NCBI RefSeq assembly: GCF_051903065.1
Contig: NZ_CP178438.1
Source: Escherichia coli
Lineage (GTDB): Bacteria; Pseudomonadota; Gammaproteobacteria; Enterobacterales; Enterobacteriaceae
DNA: 64,000 nt
Strand: one strand, 5' to 3'
Under the pieces are notes generated by a model, which saw nothing but the letters and a program-made list of their open reading frames with translations, was not told the origin of the DNA and ran no database searches. Within the stretch, counting starts at the first letter, position 1. Each line of letters opens with the position of its first letter. Made by a program: the position numbers and the translations under genes. Of the stretch, positions 1,614-43,060 are shown one piece after another.

Positions 1614-3150
1614 AATAGTCATTAAACCGAATACCTATTTTGATTCTGTCTCGCTGATGTCTATCTCCACGCGTGCAAATAAACTCGACGGCGTCGAGCA
1701 GGCATTTGTGGCGATGGCGACCGAAATGAATAAAGGCGTGCTGAAGAATTTAGGACTGCTGACGCCGGAGCTGGAGCAGGCGAAAAACGGCGACCTGATG
1801 ATTGTCATCAATGGTAAATCGGGTGCGGACAATGAGCAGTTGCTGGCGGAGATTGAAGAACTGTTCAACACCAAAGCGCAAAGCGGCTCGCACGAGGCGC
1901 GTTACGCCACTATTGCCAGCGCCAAAAAGCATATCCCGGAAAGTAACCTGGCGGTGATTTCGGTCAACGGTCTGTTTGCCGCTCGCGAAGCGCGTCAGGC
2001 GCTGCAAAACGATCTCAACGTGATGCTGTTTTCCGATAACGTCTCAGTTGAAGATGAACTGGCGCTCAAGCAACTGGCCCACGAAAAAGGGCTGCTGATG
2101 ATGGGGCCAGACTGCGGCACGGCGATTATCAACGGTGCGGCGCTCTGCTTTGGTAACGCCGTGCGTCGCGGCAACATCGGTATTGTTGGCGCATCCGGCA
2201 CCGGCAGCCAGGAGCTGAGCGTCCGCATTCATGAATTTGGTGGCGGCGTTTCACAACTGATTGGCACCGGCGGGCGCGACCTGAGCGAGAAAATCGGCGG
2301 CCTGATGATGCTCGACGCCATCGGGATGCTGGAAAACGATCCGCAAACTGAAATTATAGCGCTGATTTCAAAACCTCCCGCGCCTGCGGTGGCCCGTAAA
2401 GTGCTGGAACGCGCCCGCGCCTGCCGCAAGCCGGTGGTGGTCTGCTTCCTCGGTCGTGGCGAAACGCCAGTGGATGAGCAGGGGCTACAGTTTGCCCGCG
2501 GCACCAAAGAAGCGGCGCTGAAAGCGGTGATGCTCTCCGGCGTGAAACAGGAAAATCTCGACCTGCATACCCTGAACCAGCCGTTGATTGCGGATGTGCG
2601 TGCGCGTCTGCAACCGCAGCAGAAATACATTCGTGGCCTGTTCTGCGGCGGCACGTTGTGCGACGAAACCATGTTCGCGGTGATGGAAAAACATGGCGAT
2701 GTCTACAGCAACATTCAGCCCGATCCGGAATTCCGCCTGAAAGATATCAACCGCAGCATTAAACACACCTTCCTCGACTTTGGCGATGACGACTTCACCA
2801 ACGGCAAGCCGCACCCGATGATTGACCCCACCAACCGTATCAGCCGCTTGATCGAAGAAGCGCGCGATCCAGAAGTGGCGGTGATCGTGATGGATTTTGT
2901 GCTCGGATTTGGATCGCATGAAGATCCGGTCGGCTCCACCATCGAGGCGATCAAAGAAGCGAAAGCGATCGCCGCTGCCGAAGGACGCGAGTTGATCATT
3001 CTCGCCTATGTGCTGGGTACCGATCTTGATACGCCATCGTTAGAACAACAAAGCCAGATGCTGCTTGATGCCGGAGTGATTCTGGCGAGCAGCAGCACCA
3101 ATACCGGATTGCTGGCGCGTGAATTTATCTGCAAAGGGGAGGAAGCCTGA
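1603..3150 (+). CDS. yahF: FdrA-like / succinyl-CoA-synthetase-alpha-like CoA-binding protein, 515 aa
   Basis: 515-aa ORF with Gly-rich CoA/NAD-binding-like segments (GIVGASGTGSQE); overlaps yahE end and abuts yahG start. Confidence 0.8.
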   Translation: MSVKIVIKPNTYFDSVSLMSISTRANKLDGVEQAFVAMATEMNKGVLKNLGLLTPELEQAKNGDLMIVINGKSGADNEQLLAEIEELFNTKAQSGSHEARYATIASAKKHIPESNLAVISVNGLFAAREARQALQNDLNVMLFSDNVSVEDELALKQLAHEKGLLMMGPDCGTAIINGAALCFGNAVRRGNIGIVGASGTGSQELSVRIHEFGGGVSQLIGTGGRDLSEKIGGLMMLDAIGMLENDPQTEIIALISKPPAPAVARKVLERARACRKPVVVCFLGRGETPVDEQGLQFARGTKEAALKAVMLSGVKQENLDLHTLNQPLIADVRARLQPQQKYIRGLFCGGTLCDETMFAVMEKHGDVYSNIQPDPEFRLKDINRSIKHTFLDFGDDDFTNGKPHPMIDPTNRISRLIEEARDPEVAVIVMDFVLGFGSHEDPVGSTIEAIKEAKAIAAAEGRELIILAYVLGTDLDTPSLEQQSQMLLDAGVILASSSTNTGLLAREFICKGEEA

Positions 3151-4568
3151 TGAGCCAGTCACTGTTTAGCCAACCATTGAACGTTATTAACGTCGGCATC
3201 GCCATGTTTAGCGATGACCTGAAAAAGCAGCATGTAGAAGTGACTCAACTCGACTGGACGCCGCCGGGGCAGGGCAATATGCAGGTGGTGCAGGCGCTGG
3301 ATAACATTGCCGATTCGCCGCTGGCAGACAAAATCGCCGCCGCTAACCAGCAGGCGCTGGAGCGCATTATCCAGTCGCATCCGGTGCTGATTGGTTTTGA
3401 TCAGGCGATTAACGTGGTGCCGGGCATGACGCCGAAAACCATTCTTCACGCCGGGCCGCCGATCACCTGGGAAAAAATGTGCGGCGCGATGAAAGGCGCG
3501 GTCACCGGAGCGCTGGTGTTCGAAGGACTGGCGAAAGATCTCGACGAGGCGGCTGAACTGGCGGCTTCCGGGGAGATCACCTTCTCGCCGTGTCACGAGC
3601 ACGACTGCGTGGGATCGATGGCGGGTGTTACCTCGGCCTCGATGTTTATGCACATCGTAAAAAACAAAACCTACGGCAACATCGCTTATACCAACATGAG
3701 CGAGCAGATGGCGAAGATTTTGCGTATGGGCGCTAACGACCAGAGCGTGATTGACCGCCTGAACTGGATGCGTGATGTGCAGGGACCAATACTGCGCGAC
3801 GCGATGAAAATTATCGGCGAAATCGATCTGCGCTTAATGCTGGCGCAGGCGCTGCATATGGGCGATGAGTGCCATAACCGCAATAACGCCGGGACGACGC
3901 TGCTGATTCAGGCGCTGACGCCGGGGATTATCCAGGCGGGCTATTCCGTCGCGCAACAGCGCGAAGTGTTTGAGTTTGTCGCCAGCAGCGACTACTTCTC
4001 CGGCCCGACGTGGATGGCGATGTGTAAAGCGGCGATGGATGCGGCGCACGGCATCGAATACAGCACCGTGGTCACCACCATGGCGCGTAACGGCGTCGAG
4101 TTCGGCCTGCGGGTCAGCGGATTACCGGGGCAATGGTTTACCGGTCCGGCGCAGCAGGTCATCGGCCCGATGTTTGCCGGTTATAAGCCGGAAGATTCGG
4201 GGCTGGATATCGGCGATAGCGCCATCACAGAAACCTACGGTATTGGCGGGTTTGCTATGGCGACCGCACCCGCTATCGTCGCGCTGGTGGGCGGCACGGT
4301 GGAAGAGGCTATCGATTTCTCCCGTCAGATGCGCGAAATCACCCTTGGCGAAAACCCCAACGTCACCATTCCGCTGCTCGGTTTTATGGGCGTGCCATCG
4401 GCAATCGACATCACCCGCGTGGGTAGCAGCGGCATTCTGCCAGTGATCAACACCGCCATCGCCCATAAAGATGCGGGCGTCGGCATGATTGGCGCGGGCA
4501 TTGTGCATCCACCTTTTGCCTGCTTCGAGAAAGCCATTCTTGGCTGGTGCGAACGTTACGGCGTCTGA
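3150..4568 (+). CDS. yahG: uncharacterised protein (DUF1116-type), 472 aa
   Basis: 472-aa ORF, start codon overlaps yahF stop (3150); synteny. Confidence 0.8.
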   Translation: MSQSLFSQPLNVINVGIAMFSDDLKKQHVEVTQLDWTPPGQGNMQVVQALDNIADSPLADKIAAANQQALERIIQSHPVLIGFDQAINVVPGMTPKTILHAGPPITWEKMCGAMKGAVTGALVFEGLAKDLDEAAELAASGEITFSPCHEHDCVGSMAGVTSASMFMHIVKNKTYGNIAYTNMSEQMAKILRMGANDQSVIDRLNWMRDVQGPILRDAMKIIGEIDLRLMLAQALHMGDECHNRNNAGTTLLIQALTPGIIQAGYSVAQQREVFEFVASSDYFSGPTWMAMCKAAMDAAHGIEYSTVVTTMARNGVEFGLRVSGLPGQWFTGPAQQVIGPMFAGYKPEDSGLDIGDSAITETYGIGGFAMATAPAIVALVGGTVEEAIDFSRQMREITLGENPNVTIPLLGFMGVPSAIDITRVGSSGILPVINTAIAHKDAGVGMIGAGIVHPPFACFEKAILGWCERYGV

Positions 4569-4581
4569 CCTACATGTTCAT

Positions 4582-5035
4582 GCCGGATGCGGCGTGAACG
4601 CCTTATCCGGCCTACGAATGGCGCAAGAATCTGTAGGCCTGATAAGCGTAGCGCATCAGGCATTTGTCACCATTGCCGGATGCGGCGTGAACGCCTTATC
4701 CGGCCCACGAATGGCACGAGAATCTGTAGGCCTGATAAGCGTAGCGCATCAGGCATTTGTCACCATTGCCGGATGCGGCGTGAACGCCTTATCCGGCCTA
4801 CGAATGGCGCAAGAATTGTAGGCCTGATAAGCGTAGCGCATCAGGCATTTGTCACCATTGCCGGATGCGGCGTGAACGCCTTATCCGGCCCACGAATGGC
4901 ACGAGAATTTGTAGGCCTGATAAGCGTAGCGCATCAGGCATTTGTCACCATTGCCGGATGCGGCGTGAACGCCTTATCCGGCTTACGAGTGGCACGAGAA
5001 TTTGTAGGCCTGATAAGCGTAGCGCATCAGGCAAT
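4582..5035. repeat. REP/BIME tandem array (about 5 units, roughly 94-bp period)
   Basis: Repeated units GCCGGATGCGGCGTGAACGCCTTATCCGGCCTAC ... GTAGGCCTGATAAGCGTAGCGCATCAGGCA read directly; palindromic REP consensus; ORF-track hits inside are artefacts. Confidence 0.9.
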
Positions 5036-5082
5036 TTGGCGTTGGTCACAACCCCATCACCCTCTGTAGCGGACATAACAAC

Positions 5083-7425: not shown

Positions 7426-7801
7426 TGCGCATTTGAAACGCCTGCAACGGTGAATAGTAAGAGATTTAAGCCCCAGGGAGTGGGGCAATCTGAATATGAG
7501 TGTGTCGGCAGAAATGGACATTATCTTTGAGGAATATGCCCTTATTGACGTTGTGTAGATAACTATTTGTCTACGTGAAAAGATCATCAGTTTTGCCGAT
7601 TTTAGTCTTTTACGGATAGCAAATATCACACTTATAGGCGCTCGCCTTATGGGGAACGTTGCTGCTTTGTTTCATTCAGGCTCGCGGCATGTTGGGGCTG
7701 GATCGGGTGGTTTAAATATTGGCTATATTCAATGGACGCGTTTTGCCGCGATGACATATCAGGCGTCGCCAAATACACATAGCTAATCAGGAGTAAACAC
7801 A

Positions 7802-11706: not shown

Positions 11707-12763
11707 GGCTTTGTTGAATAAATCGAACTTTTGCTGAGTTGAAGGATCAGATCACGTATCTTCCCGACAACGCAGACCGTTCCGTGGCAAAGCAAAAGTT
11801 CAAAATCACCAACTGGCCCACCTACAATAAAGCCCTCATCAACCGTGGCTCCATAACTTTCTGGCTGGATGATGAAGCTATTCAGGCCTGGTATGAGTCA
11901 GCAACACCTTCTTCACGAGGCAGACCTCAGCGCTATTCTGACCTTGCCATCACGACTGTGCTGGTCATTAAACGCGTATTCAGGCTGACCCTGCGCGCTG
12001 CGCAGGGCTTTATTGATTCCATTTTTTCTCTGATGAACGTTCCGCTACGCTGCCCGGATTACAGCTGTGTCAGCAGGCGGGCAAAGTCGGTTAATGTCAG
12101 TTTCAAAACGCCCACCCGGGGTGAAATCGCACACCTGGTAATTGATTCCACCGGGCTGAAGGTCTTCGGTGAAGGCGAGTGGAAAGTCAAAAAGCATGGC
12201 CAGGAACGCCGCCGTATCTGGCGTAAGCTGCATCTCGCCGTTGACAGTAAAACACATGAAATCATCTGCGCTGACCTGTCGCTGAACAACGTTACGGACT
12301 CAGAGGCCTTCCCCGGGTTAATCCGGCAAACCCACCGGAAAATCAGGTCAGCCGCCGCCGATGGCGCTTACGATACCCGGCTATGTCACGATGAACTGCG
12401 GCGTAAGAAAATCAGCGCGCTTATCCCTCCCCGAAAAGGTGCGGGTTACTGGCCCGGTGAATATGCAGACCGTAACCGTGCAGTGGCTAATCAGCGAATG
12501 ACCGGGAGTAATGCGCGGTGGAAATGGACAACAGATTACAACCGTCGCTCGATAGCGGAAACGGCGATGTACCGGGTAAAACAGCTGTTCGGGGGTTCAC
12601 TGACACTGCGTGACTACGATGGTCAGGTTGCAGAGGCTATGGCCCTGGTACGAGCGCTGAACAAAATGACGAAAGCAGGTATGCCTGAAAGCGTGCGTAT
12701 TGCCTGAAAACACAACCCGCTACGGGGGAGACTTACCCGAAATCTGATTTATTCAACAAAGCC
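11707..12763 (+). mobile_element. IS903-type insertion sequence (IS5 family), 1057 bp, intact
   Basis: 18-bp terminal inverted repeats GGCTTTGTTGAATAAATC (11707..11724) and its reverse complement (12746..12763); flanked by perfect 9-bp direct repeats TCCCCGATG (11698..11706 and 12764..12772); length 1057 bp matches IS903. Confidence 0.9.
11784..12707 (+). CDS. IS903 transposase (about 307 aa if GTG start at 11784; ORF open from 11739)
   Basis: Single long ORF filling the element; left-end DNA matches the remembered Tn903/IS903 end sequence; 307-aa size expected for IS903 transposase. Confidence 0.85.
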   Translation: MAKQKFKITNWPTYNKALINRGSITFWLDDEAIQAWYESATPSSRGRPQRYSDLAITTVLVIKRVFRLTLRAAQGFIDSIFSLMNVPLRCPDYSCVSRRAKSVNVSFKTPTRGEIAHLVIDSTGLKVFGEGEWKVKKHGQERRRIWRKLHLAVDSKTHEIICADLSLNNVTDSEAFPGLIRQTHRKIRSAAADGAYDTRLCHDELRRKKISALIPPRKGAGYWPGEYADRNRAVANQRMTGSNARWKWTTDYNRRSIAETAMYRVKQLFGGSLTLRDYDGQVAEAMALVRALNKMTKAGMPESVRIA

Positions 12764-14629: not shown

Positions 14630-14665
14630 CAACGCAAATAACAAGTTGATAACAAAGGATGGGCT

Positions 14666-15571: not shown

Positions 15572-15868
15572 TGTATTCGACAACCGATGCCTGATGCGCC
15601 GCTGACGCGACTTATCAGGCCTACGGGGTGTACTGAACTGTAGGTCGGATAAGACGCATGGCGTCGCATCCGACAACCGATGCCTGATGCGTCGCTGACG
15701 CGACTTATCAGGCCTACGGGGTGAACTGAACTGTAGGTCGGATAAGACGCATGGCGTCGCATCCGACAACCGATGCCTGATGCGCCGCTGACGCGGCTTA
15801 TCAGGCCTACGGGGTGTACTGAACTGTAGGTCGGATAAGACGCATGGCGTCGCATCCGACAACAATCT
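15572..15868. repeat. REP/BIME tandem array (3 units, about 92-bp period)
   Basis: Three near-identical units ...GATGCCTGATGCGCCGCTGACGCGACTTATCAGGCCTACGGGGTG-ACTGAACTGTAGGTCGGATAAGACGCATGGCGTCGCATCCGACAAC. Confidence 0.9.
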
Positions 15869-18596: not shown

Positions 18597-20483
18597 ATGT
18601 CTTTTAGCGAATTTTATCAGCGTTCGATTAACGAACCGGAGCAGTTCTGGGCCGAGCAGGCCCGGCGTATTGACTGGCAGACGCCCTTTACGCAAACGCT
18701 CGATCACAGCAATCCGCCGTTTGCCCGTTGGTTTTGTGAAGGCCGAACCAACTTGTGCCACAACGCTATCGACCGCTGGCTGGAGAAACAACCAGAGGCG
18801 CTGGCGCTGATTGCCGTCTCTTCGGAAACAGAAGAAGAGCGCACCTTTACCTTTCGCCAGCTGCATGACGAAGTGAACGCGGTGGCGTCAATGCTGCGCT
18901 CGCTGGGCGTGCAGCGTGGCGATCGGGTGCTGGTGTATATGCCGATGATTGCCGAAGCGCATATTACCCTGCTGGCCTGCGCGCGCATTGGCGCTATTCA
19001 CTCGGTGGTGTTTGGTGGATTTGCCTCGCACAGCGTGGCGGCGCGAATTGATGATGCTAAACCGGTGCTGATTGTCTCGGCTGATGCCGGAGCGCGCGGT
19101 GGCAAAATCATTCCCTATAAAAAATTGCTCGACGATGCGATAAGTCAGGCGCAGCACCAGCCACGCCATGTTTTGCTGGTGGATCGCGGGCTGGCGAAAA
19201 TGGCGCGCGTCAGCGGGCGGGATGTCGATTTCGCGTCGTTGCGCCATCAACACATCGGCGCGCGGGTACCGGTGGCGTGGCTGGAATCCAACGAAACCTC
19301 CTGCATTCTCTACACCTCCGGCACGACCGGCAAACCTAAAGGCGTGCAGCGTGACGTCGGCGGATATGCGGTGGCGCTGGCGACCTCGATGGACACCATT
19401 TTTGGCGGCAAAGCGGGCGGTGTGTTCTTTTGTGCTTCGGATATCGGCTGGGTGGTGGGGCATTCGTATATCGTCTACGCGCCGCTGCTGGCGGGGATGG
19501 CGACTATCGTTTACGAAGGATTACCGACCTGGCCGGACTGCGGCGTGTGGTGGAAAATCGTCGAGAAATATCAGGTTAGCCGGATGTTCTCAGCGCCGAC
19601 CGCCATTCGCGTGCTGAAAAAATTCCCTACCGCTGAAATTCGCAAACACGATCTTTCGTCGCTGGAAGTTCTCTATCTGGCGGGGGAGCCGCTGGACGAG
19701 CCGACCGCCAGTTGGGTGAGCAATACGCTGGATGTGCCGGTCATCGACAACTACTGGCAGACCGAATCCGGCTGGCCGATTATGGCGATTGCTCGCGGTC
19801 TGGACGACAGGCCGACGCGTCTGGGAAGCCCCGGCGTGCCGATGTATGGCTATAACGTGCAGTTGCTTAATGAAGTCACCGGCGAACCGTGTGGCGTTAA
19901 CGAGAAAGGGATGCTGGTGGTGGAAGGGCCGCTGCCGCCGGGGTGTATTCAGACCATCTGGGGCGACGACGACCGCTTTGTGAAGACGTACTGGTCGCTG
20001 TTTTCCCGCCCGGTGTACGCCACCTTTGACTGGGGCATCCGCGATGCTGACGGTTATTACTTTATTCTCGGGCGCACTGACGATGTAATTAACGTTGCCG
20101 GGCATCGGCTGGGGACGCGCGAGATTGAAGAGAGTATCTCCAGTCATCCGGGCGTTGCCGAAGTGGCGGTGGTTGGGGTGAAAGATGCGCTGAAAGGGCA
20201 GGTGGCGGTGGCGTTTGTCATTCCGAAAGAGAGCGACAGTCTGGAAGATCGTGATGTGGCGCATTCGCAAGAGAAGGCGATTATGGCGCTGGTGGACAGC
20301 CAGATTGGCAACTTTGGCCGCCCGGCGCACGTCTGGTTTGTCTCGCAATTGCCAAAAACGCGATCCGGAAAAATGCTGCGCCGCACGATCCAGGCGATTT
20401 GCGAAGGACGCGATCCTGGGGATCTGACGACCATTGATGATCCTGCGTCGTTGGATCAGATCCGCCAGGCGATGGAAGAGTAA
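18597..20483 (+). CDS. prpE: propionyl-CoA synthetase, 628 aa
   Basis: Acyl-CoA synthetase AMP-binding motif (YTSGTTGKPKG). Confidence 0.9.
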   Translation: MSFSEFYQRSINEPEQFWAEQARRIDWQTPFTQTLDHSNPPFARWFCEGRTNLCHNAIDRWLEKQPEALALIAVSSETEEERTFTFRQLHDEVNAVASMLRSLGVQRGDRVLVYMPMIAEAHITLLACARIGAIHSVVFGGFASHSVAARIDDAKPVLIVSADAGARGGKIIPYKKLLDDAISQAQHQPRHVLLVDRGLAKMARVSGRDVDFASLRHQHIGARVPVAWLESNETSCILYTSGTTGKPKGVQRDVGGYAVALATSMDTIFGGKAGGVFFCASDIGWVVGHSYIVYAPLLAGMATIVYEGLPTWPDCGVWWKIVEKYQVSRMFSAPTAIRVLKKFPTAEIRKHDLSSLEVLYLAGEPLDEPTASWVSNTLDVPVIDNYWQTESGWPIMAIARGLDDRPTRLGSPGVPMYGYNVQLLNEVTGEPCGVNEKGMLVVEGPLPPGCIQTIWGDDDRFVKTYWSLFSRPVYATFDWGIRDADGYYFILGRTDDVINVAGHRLGTREIEESISSHPGVAEVAVVGVKDALKGQVAVAFVIPKESDSLEDRDVAHSQEKAIMALVDSQIGNFGRPAHVWFVSQLPKTRSGKMLRRTIQAICEGRDPGDLTTIDDPASLDQIRQAMEE

Positions 20484-20486
20484 GGT

Positions 20487-21128
20487 ATTGTCGGATGCGT
20501 CGCGTGGCGCATCCGACACCATGCGCAGATGCCTGATGCGACGCTGACGCGTCTTATCATGCCTACAGGCCTGAACCGTAGGTCGGATAAGGCGCTCGCG
20601 CCGCATTCGACACCATGCGCCGATGCCTGATGCGACGCAGGCGCGTCTTATCATACCTACAGGCCTGAACCGTAGGTCGGATAAGGCGCTCGCGCCGCAT
20701 TCGACACCATGCGCCGATGCCTGATGCGACGCAGGCGCGTCTTATCATGCCTACAGGCCTGAACCGTAGGTCGGATAAGGCGCTCGCGCCGCATCCGACA
20801 CCGTGTGCCGATGCCTGATGCGACGCTGGCGCGTCTTATCATGCCTACAGGCCTGAACCGTAGGTCGGATAAGGCGCTCGCGCCGCATCCGACACCGTGC
20901 TCAGTGCCTGATGCGACGCTGATGCGTCTTATCATGCCTACAGGCCTGAACCGTAGGTCGGATAAGGCGCTCGCGCCGCATTCGACACCATGCGCCGATG
21001 CCTGATGCGACGCAGGCGCGTCTTATCATGCCTACAGGCCTGAACCGTAGGTCGGATAAGGCGCTCGCGCCGCATCCGACACCATGCTCAGTTGCCTGAT
21101 ACGACGCTGGCGCGTCTTATCATGCCTA
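20487..21128. repeat. large REP/BIME tandem array (about 6 units, about 640 bp)
   Basis: Repeated palindromic units GATGCCTGATGCGACGC-GGCGCGTCTTATCATGCCTACAGGCCTGAACCGTAGGTCGGATAAGGCGCTCGCGCCGCAT-CGACACC; ORF-track hits inside are artefacts. Confidence 0.9.
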
Positions 21129-21281
21129 CCCACTGTTTTTACACCGATAATTTTTCCCCCACCTTTTTGCACTCATTCATATAAAAAATATATTTCCCCA
21201 CGAAAACGATTGCTTTTTATCTTCAGATGAATAGAATGCGGCGGATTTTTTGGGTTTCAAACAGCAAAAAGGGGGAATTTC

Positions 21282-22541
21282 GTGTCGCAAGATAACAACT
21301 TTAGCCAGGGGCCAGTCCCGCAGTCGGCGCGGAAAGGGGTATTGGCATTGACGTTCGTCATGCTGGGATTAACCTTCTTTTCCGCCAGTATGTGGACTGG
21401 CGGCACTCTCGGAACCGGTCTTAGCTATCATGATTTCTTCCTCGCAGTTCTCATCGGCAATCTTCTCCTCGGTATTTACACTTCATTTCTCGGTTACATT
21501 GGCGCAAAAACCGGCCTGACCACTCATCTTCTTGCTCGCTTCTCGTTTGGTGTTAAAGGCTCATGGCTGCCTTCACTGCTGCTGGGCGGCACCCAGGTTG
21601 GCTGGTTTGGCGTTGGCGTGGCGATGTTTGCCATTCCGGTGGGTAAGGCAACCGGGCTGGATATTAATTTGCTGATTGCCGTTTCCGGTTTACTGATGAC
21701 CGTCACCGTCTTCTTTGGCATTTCGGCGCTGACAGTTCTTTCGGTGATTGCGGTTCCGGCGATCGCCTGTCTTGGCGGTTATTCCGTGTGGCTGGCCGTT
21801 AACGGCATGGGCGGCCTGGACGCCTTAAAAGCGGTCGTTCCCGCACAACCATTAGATTTCAATGTCGCGCTGGCGCTGGTTGTGGGGTCATTTATCAGCG
21901 CGGGTACGCTCACCGCTGACTTTGTCCGCTTTGGTCGCAATGCCAAACTGGCGGTGCTGGTGGCGATGGTGGCCTTTTTCCTCGGCAACTCGTTGATGTT
22001 TATTTTCGGTGCAGCGGGAGCGGCGGCACTGGGGTTGGCGGATATCTCTGATGTGATGATTGCTCAGGGCCTGCTGCTGCCTGCGATTGTGGTGCTGGGA
22101 CTGAATATCTGGACCACCAACGATAACGCGCTCTATGCGTCGGGTTTAGGTTTCGCCAACATTACCGGTATGTCGAGCAAAACCCTTTCGGTAATCAACG
22201 GTATTATCGGTACGGTCTGCGCATTATGGCTGTATAACAATTTTGTCGGCTGGTTGACCTTCCTTTCGGCAGCTATTCCTCCGGTGGGTGGCGTGATCAT
22301 TGCCGACTATCTGATGAACCGTCGCCGCTATGAGCACTTTGCGACCACGCGTATGATGAGTGTCAATTGGGTGGCGATTCTGGCGGTCGCCTTGGGGATT
22401 GCTGCAGGCCACTGGTTACCGGGAATTGTTCCGGTCAACGCGGTATTAGGTGGCGCGCTGAGCTATCTGATCCTTAACCCGATTTTGAATCGTAAAACGA
22501 CAGCAGCAATGACGCATGTGGAGGCTAACAGTGTCGAATAA
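21282..22541 (+). CDS. codB: cytosine permease, 419 aa (GTG start)
   Basis: NCS1-family multi-TM transporter; GTG start preceded by AAAAAGGGGGA Shine-Dalgarno; overlaps codA. Confidence 0.9.
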
Positions 22542-42904: not shown

Positions 42905-43060
42905 ACGACTGCCGGATGCGGCGTGAACGCCTTATCCGGCCTACGGGTGGCGTGAGAATTTGTAGGCCTGATAAGACGCGCAAGCGTCGCATCAGGCATC
43001 TGCACACGACTGCCGGATGCGGTAAACGTCTTGTCCGGCCTACATTTCGCCCGTAGGCAG
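42905..43060. repeat. REP/BIME cluster
   Basis: GCCGGATGCGGCGTGAACGCCTTATCCGGCCTAC ... GTAGGCCTGATAAGACGCGCAAGCGTCGCATCAGGCA ... GCCGGATGCGG. Confidence 0.85.

Follow-up and report, generated by a model that had tools for sequence, protein, structure and literature searches.

Tandem Y/Z2 REP doublets of the BIME-2 type between prpE and codB form an array of strain-variable length in Escherichia coli

Studies on REP elements in E. coli describe distinct architectures for their assembly into BIMEs. In the classification summarized by Ton-Hoang et al. (2012), a BIME-1 consists of one Y/Z1 pair whose long L linker binds IHF. A BIME-2 repeats Y and Z2 several times in tandem, with only short linkers in between, and its copies are well conserved at each locus while their number varies from strain to strain. 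In K-12, 355 REP elements with 1-12 palindromic units are annotated, and REP325, with 12, is described as 'among the longest'. REP325 occupies the yjdM-yjdN spacer, is the source of naRNA1-6, and is defined in the literature as alternating Y and Z2. In a 2026 preprint, deletion of REP325 raised the downstream yjdN about 8-10-fold and lowered the upstream yjdM. Its transcripts formed a ladder with ends at the hairpins, and bicyclomycin-sensitive, partly Rho-dependent attenuation was seen only with the full 12-hairpin REP325, not with fragments of 2-4 hairpins. The same preprint finds REP effects to be context-dependent and terminal REPs not to raise mRNA half-life in general. Genome-wide, tandem gene pairs split by REPs show upstream-biased expression. 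In addition, Liang, Rudd and Deutscher (2015) are cited for the rule that REPs located <16 nt past a stop codon can reduce translation via stalled ribosomes, with roughly half of the REPs in that study falling within this distance, and Espeli and Boccard (1997) are cited for the binding and cleavage of BIME-2 by DNA gyrase.

Here, we analyzed a stretch of 64,000 nucleotides of E. coli DNA (the window) together with the RefSeq annotation of E. coli 23CRST027 (NZ_AP045789.1), a strain from human faeces in Ecuador whose chromosome matches the window at 100%. In the prpE-codB spacer, Tandem Repeats Finder (TRF) detects a 94-bp unit at 20508-21129 in 6.6 copies, with 94% matches, 0 indels and a score of 1097, which sets the repeat apart from chance. 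Once the terminal hairpin at 20489-20518 is counted in, the full array spans 641 bp (Table 1). A tandem REP/BIME array of about six units had been proposed from the sequence at 20487-21128, and both TRF and the hairpins bear this out. The same prediction had the array take up the entire spacer, which is not the case. It covers 641 of the 798 bp (80%) and leaves 152 bp (21130-21281) of AT-rich, non-repetitive and conserved sequence upstream of codB, where a sigma-70-like match at 21166-21194 (TTTGCA-17-TATATT) marks a putative promoter. The array is extragenic, extending between the prpE stop codon (TAA, 20481-20483) and the codB start codon (GTG, 21282), and RefSeq annotates no CDS within it; we attribute the open reading frames of 61-92 aa that it contains to the repeat structure. 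The stem of the first hairpin begins at 20489, 5 nt downstream of the prpE stop codon. The stop codon itself is TAA here and in most long-array strains and TAG in K-12 (7591-7593 of the K-12 locus sequence) and E. coli B, and the 5-nt stretch that follows also differs (GGTAT versus GTTAT).

Table 1. Features of the prpE-codB array, its building blocks, its flanking genes and the sister arrays in the window.
Feature	Position	Strand	Sequence or size	Basis or remark
Sister array yahG-yahI, Y plus short 29-nt Z REP (GCCTGATGCGCTACGCTTATCAGGCCTAC)	4581..5038	-	93 bp x 4.9	TRF, annotation
Sister array prpB-prpC, Y/Z2-type doublets	15578..15863	+	93 bp x 3.1	TRF, naRNA4
prpE (propionate--CoA ligase), last gene of prpBCDE	18597..20483	+		TIGR02316 1303.7 bits; RefSeq annotation NZ_AP045789.1
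Whole BIME-2-type array, 7 Y(-)-l-Z2(+) REP doublets, 14 hairpins	20489..21129	+	641 bp	TRF, unit decomposition, hairpin list
Doublet 1: variant Y-type hairpin 20489-20518, Z2 REP 20530-20566	20489..20566	+		naRNA4 46.2 bits
Doublet 2: Y REP 20578-20612 (GTAG on + strand), Z2 REP 20624-20660	20578..20660	+		naRNA4 59.5 bits (20581-20657)
Doublet 3: Y REP 20672-20706, Z2 REP 20718-20754	20672..20754	+		naRNA4 65.2 bits
Doublet 4: Y REP 20766-20800, Z2 REP 20812-20848	20766..20848	+		naRNA4 74.1 bits
Doublet 5: Y REP 20860-20894, Z2 REP 20905-20941	20860..20941	+	93-bp unit	naRNA4 71.4 bits
Doublet 6: Y REP 20953-20987, Z2 REP 20999-21035	20953..21035	+		naRNA4 65.2 bits
Doublet 7: Y REP 21047-21081, Z2 REP 21093-21129	21047..21129	+		naRNA4 70.5 bits
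Y-type REP, + strand reading			GTAGGTCGGATAAGGCGCTCGCGCCGCATCCGACA, 35 nt	
Head-to-head linker			e.g. CCATGCGCCGA, 10-11 nt	
Z2 REP			TGCCTGATGCGACGCTGGCGCGTCTTATCATGCCTAC, 37 nt	
Tail-to-tail linker, invariant			AGGCCTGAACC, 11 nt	6/6 identical
codB upstream region, non-repeat, outside the array	21130..21281	+		36% GC; near-identical in 11 strains
codB (cytosine permease), first downstream gene	21282..22541	+		NF008241 694 bits; RefSeq annotation

Each unit is composed of two REP hairpins in opposite orientation. Seven Z2 REPs on the + strand alternate with seven Y-type hairpins on the - strand, six of them canonical Y REPs and one a variant, making 14 hairpins in total. The GTAG/CTAC foot and the stem mismatch are present in 13 of the 14. 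The exception is the first hairpin (20489-20518), which has a perfect 13-bp stem of -23.9 kcal/mol without foot or mismatch and is found in all strains examined. At the other end, the CTAC foot of doublet 7 forms the right boundary of the array, again conserved across strains. Predicted RNA folding energies of the single hairpins range from -12 to -19 kcal/mol, or from -12 to -24 kcal/mol with the first hairpin included, and the fold of the array RNA is far more stable than that of shuffled sequence (z = -9.5). In the global minimum-energy fold, neighboring REPs pair with each other. We infer that the local hairpins, rather than this global fold, are the relevant co-transcriptional structures. 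An inverted-repeat search recovered the REP stems with a seed of 6 and returned nothing with a seed of 9 because the stems are interrupted.

By its composition and architecture, the prpE-codB array is a BIME-2-type tandem REP array. Like the BIME-2 family (Gilson, Bachellier and Hofnung, as cited in Ton-Hoang et al., 2012), it combines Y and Z2 in tandem copies with short linkers, its units are conserved within the locus, and its copy number varies among strains; it differs in the degenerate REP nearest the stop codon. The typing of the Z element as Z2 was settled against the Z2 of K-12 REP325 (GCCTGATGCGACGCTTGCGCGTCTTATCAGGCCTAC), which is the long Z. The assignment was made independently of the BIME-2 linker motifs (S, s, l, r) and implies no subtype, 'atypical BIME' included.

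REP325 resembles the array closely. Both consist of head-to-tail Y-l-Z2 doublets between co-oriented genes, both start just past the upstream stop codon, and both match the same Rfam model, naRNA4 (RF02564), which was built on REP325 doublets and has a gathering threshold of 59.5 bits. All seven doublets of the array match this model on the + strand, six at 59.5-74.1 bits and doublet 1 at 46.2 bits. Since the + strand scores are ~20 bits above those on the - strand, the doublets are oriented to prpE transcription as those of REP325 are to yjdM. The two arrays differ in locus and flanking genes and in their dimensions: REP325 has 6 doublets with a 100-bp period and a 17-nt tail-to-tail linker, and the prpE-codB array has 7 with a 94-bp period and the 11-nt linker AGGCCTGAACC. 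Array units are ~78% identical to those of REP325. According to the naRNA4 alignment, every Y stem carries a compensated pair change from C-G to U-A (GGCCGG/CCGGC to GGUCGG/CCGAC), and in every Z2 a change of CAGGC to CATGC (CAUGC in the RNA) unpairs one stem position; these changes are specific to the array. Elsewhere in the window, a single Y-l-Z2 doublet at 42965-43040 on the - strand scores 68.6 bits with naRNA4, has a tail-to-tail linker resembling that of REP325 (AAATTCTCACGCCACCC), and is followed just beyond by a further Y REP.

We compared the prpE-codB locus in 11 alleles, those of the window strain and ten other complete genomes. The spacer measures 235 bp in E. coli B, 329 bp in K-12, 424 bp in E. 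coli C, 516 bp in EC2641, 611 bp in ES5, 705 bp in O55:H7, 798 bp in the window strain 23CRST027, 799 bp in O157:H7 MD2019EC2705C4, 893 bp in O157:H7 2571, 900 bp in KE47 and 985 bp in DG343-1. The alleles form a ladder with steps of ~94 bp, the shortest having 0.6 units (2 hairpins) and the longest 8.6 units (about 18 hairpins). The copy-number variation anticipated in the original prediction is thus present at this locus, and cross-strain unit counts exclude identical arrays in all strains. The array was also said to be unusually long, which is true against K-12 (14 hairpins, where the K-12 maximum is 12) but not against the species, as 16-18 hairpins occur at the same locus in O157:H7, KE47 and DG343-1. 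That array length varies is itself already known; it is a published hallmark of BIME-2 and decades-old knowledge. Boundaries are shared across the ladder, and the right junction, CCTAC followed directly by CCACTGTTTTTACACC, is constant in the 11 alleles except for two small local rearrangements. DG343-1 (3066-3273 of its locus sequence) has lost the usual right junction (CCCACTGTTTTTACACC), and a partial Y REP is fused to GATAATTTTT, apparently by deletion at a shared GATAA. KE47 (3066-3282 of its locus sequence) carries a 7-bp duplication (CCCACTA CCCACTG) at the junction. The K-12 allele has the same boundaries, first hairpin, unit family and 152-bp codB upstream region as the window strain but holds 1.6 units (4 hairpins) instead of 6.6 (14 hairpins) and ends prpE with TAG rather than TAA.

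The frequency of these alleles was estimated from 60 of the 5,443 matching records, picked at even intervals along their ranking; in 54 of the 60 the locus could be resolved. Unit counts were taken from the span in the record, and three of the four longest were confirmed on full sequence. The sample holds 17 loci with 0.6 units, 28 with 1.6, three with 2.6, one with 4.6, one with 6.6 and four with 7.6 or more. With 28 of 54 loci at 1.6 units, the K-12-like 4-hairpin allele is the norm, and the allele of the window strain belongs to the upper tail, beyond which longer alleles exist. BLAST query coverage is unfit as a proxy for copy number, as even short alleles reach 99% coverage through overlapping alignments. 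Records aligning only at query positions 409-1501 had been candidates for an insertion or a missing prpE; three of them showed an intact prpE and 7.6-8.6 units. When one genome per species was scanned with a conserved 25-mer from the codB upstream region, the sole match was a human gut metagenome-assembled genome labelled 'Citrobacter sp.' (DXKH01000124.1, 5091-5326), in which prpE-codB is nearly identical to that of E. coli and carries a 2-hairpin allele. This genome may be mislabelled, or the repeat may have been collapsed by short-read assembly.

The units of the array are on average 0.95 identical to each other and 70-81% identical to those of other arrays (81% to prpB-prpC, 78% to REP325, 74% to yahG-yahI). 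A locus-specific unit, repeated in register and joined by identical linkers, argues for amplification in place and against repeated insertion. As judged from the sequence, the array grew by in-register duplication of one founder doublet. Changes in copy number would most likely arise when the homologous 94-bp units slip or align unequally. Length is constant within clones, with 1.6 units in all K-12 derivatives and 5.6 in all six O55:H7 strains, and differs between related lineages, O55:H7 having 5.6 units and O157:H7 6.6 or 7.6. The one-unit steps between close relatives (O157:H7 2571 and MD2019EC2705C4; KE47 and DG343-1) keep the repeat register exactly, which is the outcome expected of such misalignment.

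By analogy with REP325, the array would form the 3' end of the prpBCDE mRNA that is transcribed from the PrpR/sigma-54-driven promoter upon induction. Its hairpins may block 3'-to-5' exonucleases and so stabilize the upstream prp message. They may also attenuate read-through into codBA, partly via Rho and more strongly with more hairpins. In addition, the first hairpin could be near enough to the stop codon to disturb termination of prpE translation. Its distance of 5 nt from the prpE TAA lies within the 16-nt range for stop-proximal REPs, which carries little weight because about half of all REPs do the same; moreover, this hairpin is atypical, while the rule rests on canonical REPs. The array transcript has a C/G ratio of 1.12, a C>G bias so mild that strong Rho loading is not evident. 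Together with the lack of an intrinsic terminator (see below), this suggests that termination, if any, would be partial. Alleles with 2 and 4 hairpins are common, so a long array is not required. The roles as stabilizer and attenuator put forward in the original prediction are plausible on the model of REP325. Taken jointly, a Y/Z2 array of the BIME-2 type in the prpE 3' UTR, in-place growth, and REP325-like protection and attenuation are the best explanation of the locus, to which we assign a probability of roughly 85%.

Alternatively, the array might be a neutral minisatellite drifting in a non-essential spacer, its length having no phenotypic effect. Short alleles predominate in our sample, which makes this a serious alternative for the length differences. 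Alleles with 2 to about 18 hairpins are all found in successful lineages, and the effects of REPs are reported to be variable. Against drift stand the compensatory pairs retained in the Y stem (GTCGGAT...ATCCGAC), stems that are intact across strains, the fixed boundaries, and the stability of length within clones described above. REP325, which has the same architecture, also exerts measurable local effects. We therefore regard neutrality as possible, though the less probable account. The allelic series (2, 4, 6, 8, 10, 12, 14, 16 and about 18 hairpins) might be read as a heritable stepwise dial. Long alleles would act as Rho-dependent insulators that uncouple codBA from sigma-54-driven prp transcription and raise prpBCDE mRNA stability, and lineage lengths (5.6 units in O55:H7, 6.6-7.6 in O157:H7) would have been selected on propionate or pyrimidine-salvage expression in the gut rather than set by drift. 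This extension is speculative, and we doubt it more than we doubt neutrality.

A different driver of growth, amplification by RAYT (TnpA-REP), is unlikely, if somewhat less so than such a dial. In the literature, cleavage and recombination of BIMEs by TnpA-REP is documented in vitro, and the enzyme has been proposed to drive tandem amplification. All hairpins but the first retain the GTAG foot and the stem mismatch on which it depends. At the syntenic site after yafL, to which this observation applies, rayT of the source genome (NZ_AP045789.1, 585017-586291) is interrupted by IS1A and annotated as two pseudogene fragments. The intact rayT of a RAYT-maintained REPIN population is thus not found at that site, and the strain is probably devoid of RAYT activity, although the insertion could postdate the expansion. 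Ton-Hoang et al. (2012) saw no clear link between the presence of tnpA-REP and REP numbers, and simple misalignment of 95%-identical 94-bp repeats explains all the differences observed.

It is very improbable that the array serves as a cluster of genes for nucleoid-associated RNAs of the naRNA4 type that would act together with HU and cruciform DNA to condense the chromosome. For REP325, this role was reported by Qian et al. (2015), and in our array six doublets reach the gathering score while the remaining one stays under it, with every match on the strand that would be transcribed. The Rfam model, however, fits in effect any Y-l-Z2 doublet and matches three other places in the window. The 2026 preprint, which includes the original senior author, finds that deletion or overexpression of REP325 leaves nucleoid volume unchanged and detects no stable HU-cruciform-naRNA4 complex and no REP-REP contacts. 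Furthermore, prp is induced only on propionate, so a constitutive supply of RNA from this locus would be unlikely.

Least credible of all is that the array is an IHF-binding BIME-1/RIP element, as the IHF binding suggested in the original prediction would imply, or an intrinsic (Rho-independent) terminator of prpBCDE, with which some REPs coincide: it shares with BIME-1/RIP the pairing of a Y REP with an inverse Z-type REP, but has Z2 instead of Z1, linkers of 10-11 nt instead of a long L linker with an IHF site, and seven doublets instead of a single copy; the IHF consensus WATCAANNNNTTR has 0 matches anywhere in the array; and no + strand site in 20300-21400 has a stem directly preceding a T-run, the nearest T-run (TGTTTTT) beginning 6 nt past the CTAC foot of the last REP. 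The whole window holds only four matches to the IHF consensus, a total not above chance. One of them, at 14639-14651 on the - strand, lies in the prpR-prpB divergent promoter region and would fit a sigma-54 promoter architecture.

Two sister arrays lie in the same window (Table 1). Arrays of 3 units at prpB-prpC and 5 units at yahG-yahI had been noted from the sequence, and both are real, with 3.1 and 4.9 units. In K-12 MG1655 (2595-2973 of the locus sequence), the prpB-prpC array has 4.1 units, and the spacer is 439 bp there versus 346 bp here. The two prp arrays thus shift in opposite directions relative to K-12 (3.1 versus 4.1 units and 6.6 versus 1.6 units), which indicates that their copy numbers vary independently. 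The yahG-yahI array pairs Y with a short Z of the Z1 type in tandem, an 'atypical' arrangement, and its BIME type therefore differs from that of the prp arrays. Two 'hypothetical proteins' that RefSeq/PGAP places wholly inside this repeat (about 4619-4822 and 4897-5070) are probably phantom ORFs. A mobilome-sequencing preprint reports stress-induced exonuclease protection at eight K-12 REP regions, REP31a-g and REP32a-d included; judged by how these two are numbered and how many REPs they contain, they could be the K-12 arrays of the prp region, where the prpE-codB allele has 4 hairpins. A frameshifted IS5-family transposase pseudogene is located at 11785-12707, between yahO and prpR.

In this study, we characterized an array that is a known type of element acting in a known way, with a shorter K-12 copy at the same locus, and as a discovery it amounts to little. 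Its use lies elsewhere. Repeat arrays seed phantom ORF calls, as in the yahG-yahI array, and short-read assembly readily collapses arrays that extend over 600-900 bp with 95% identity between units. The length of the prpE-codB spacer is a simple lineage marker. In addition, the prpE-codB locus is a natural allelic series, from 2 to about 18 hairpins, that would lend itself to testing the recent claim of length-dependent terminator and stabilizer activity in REP arrays.
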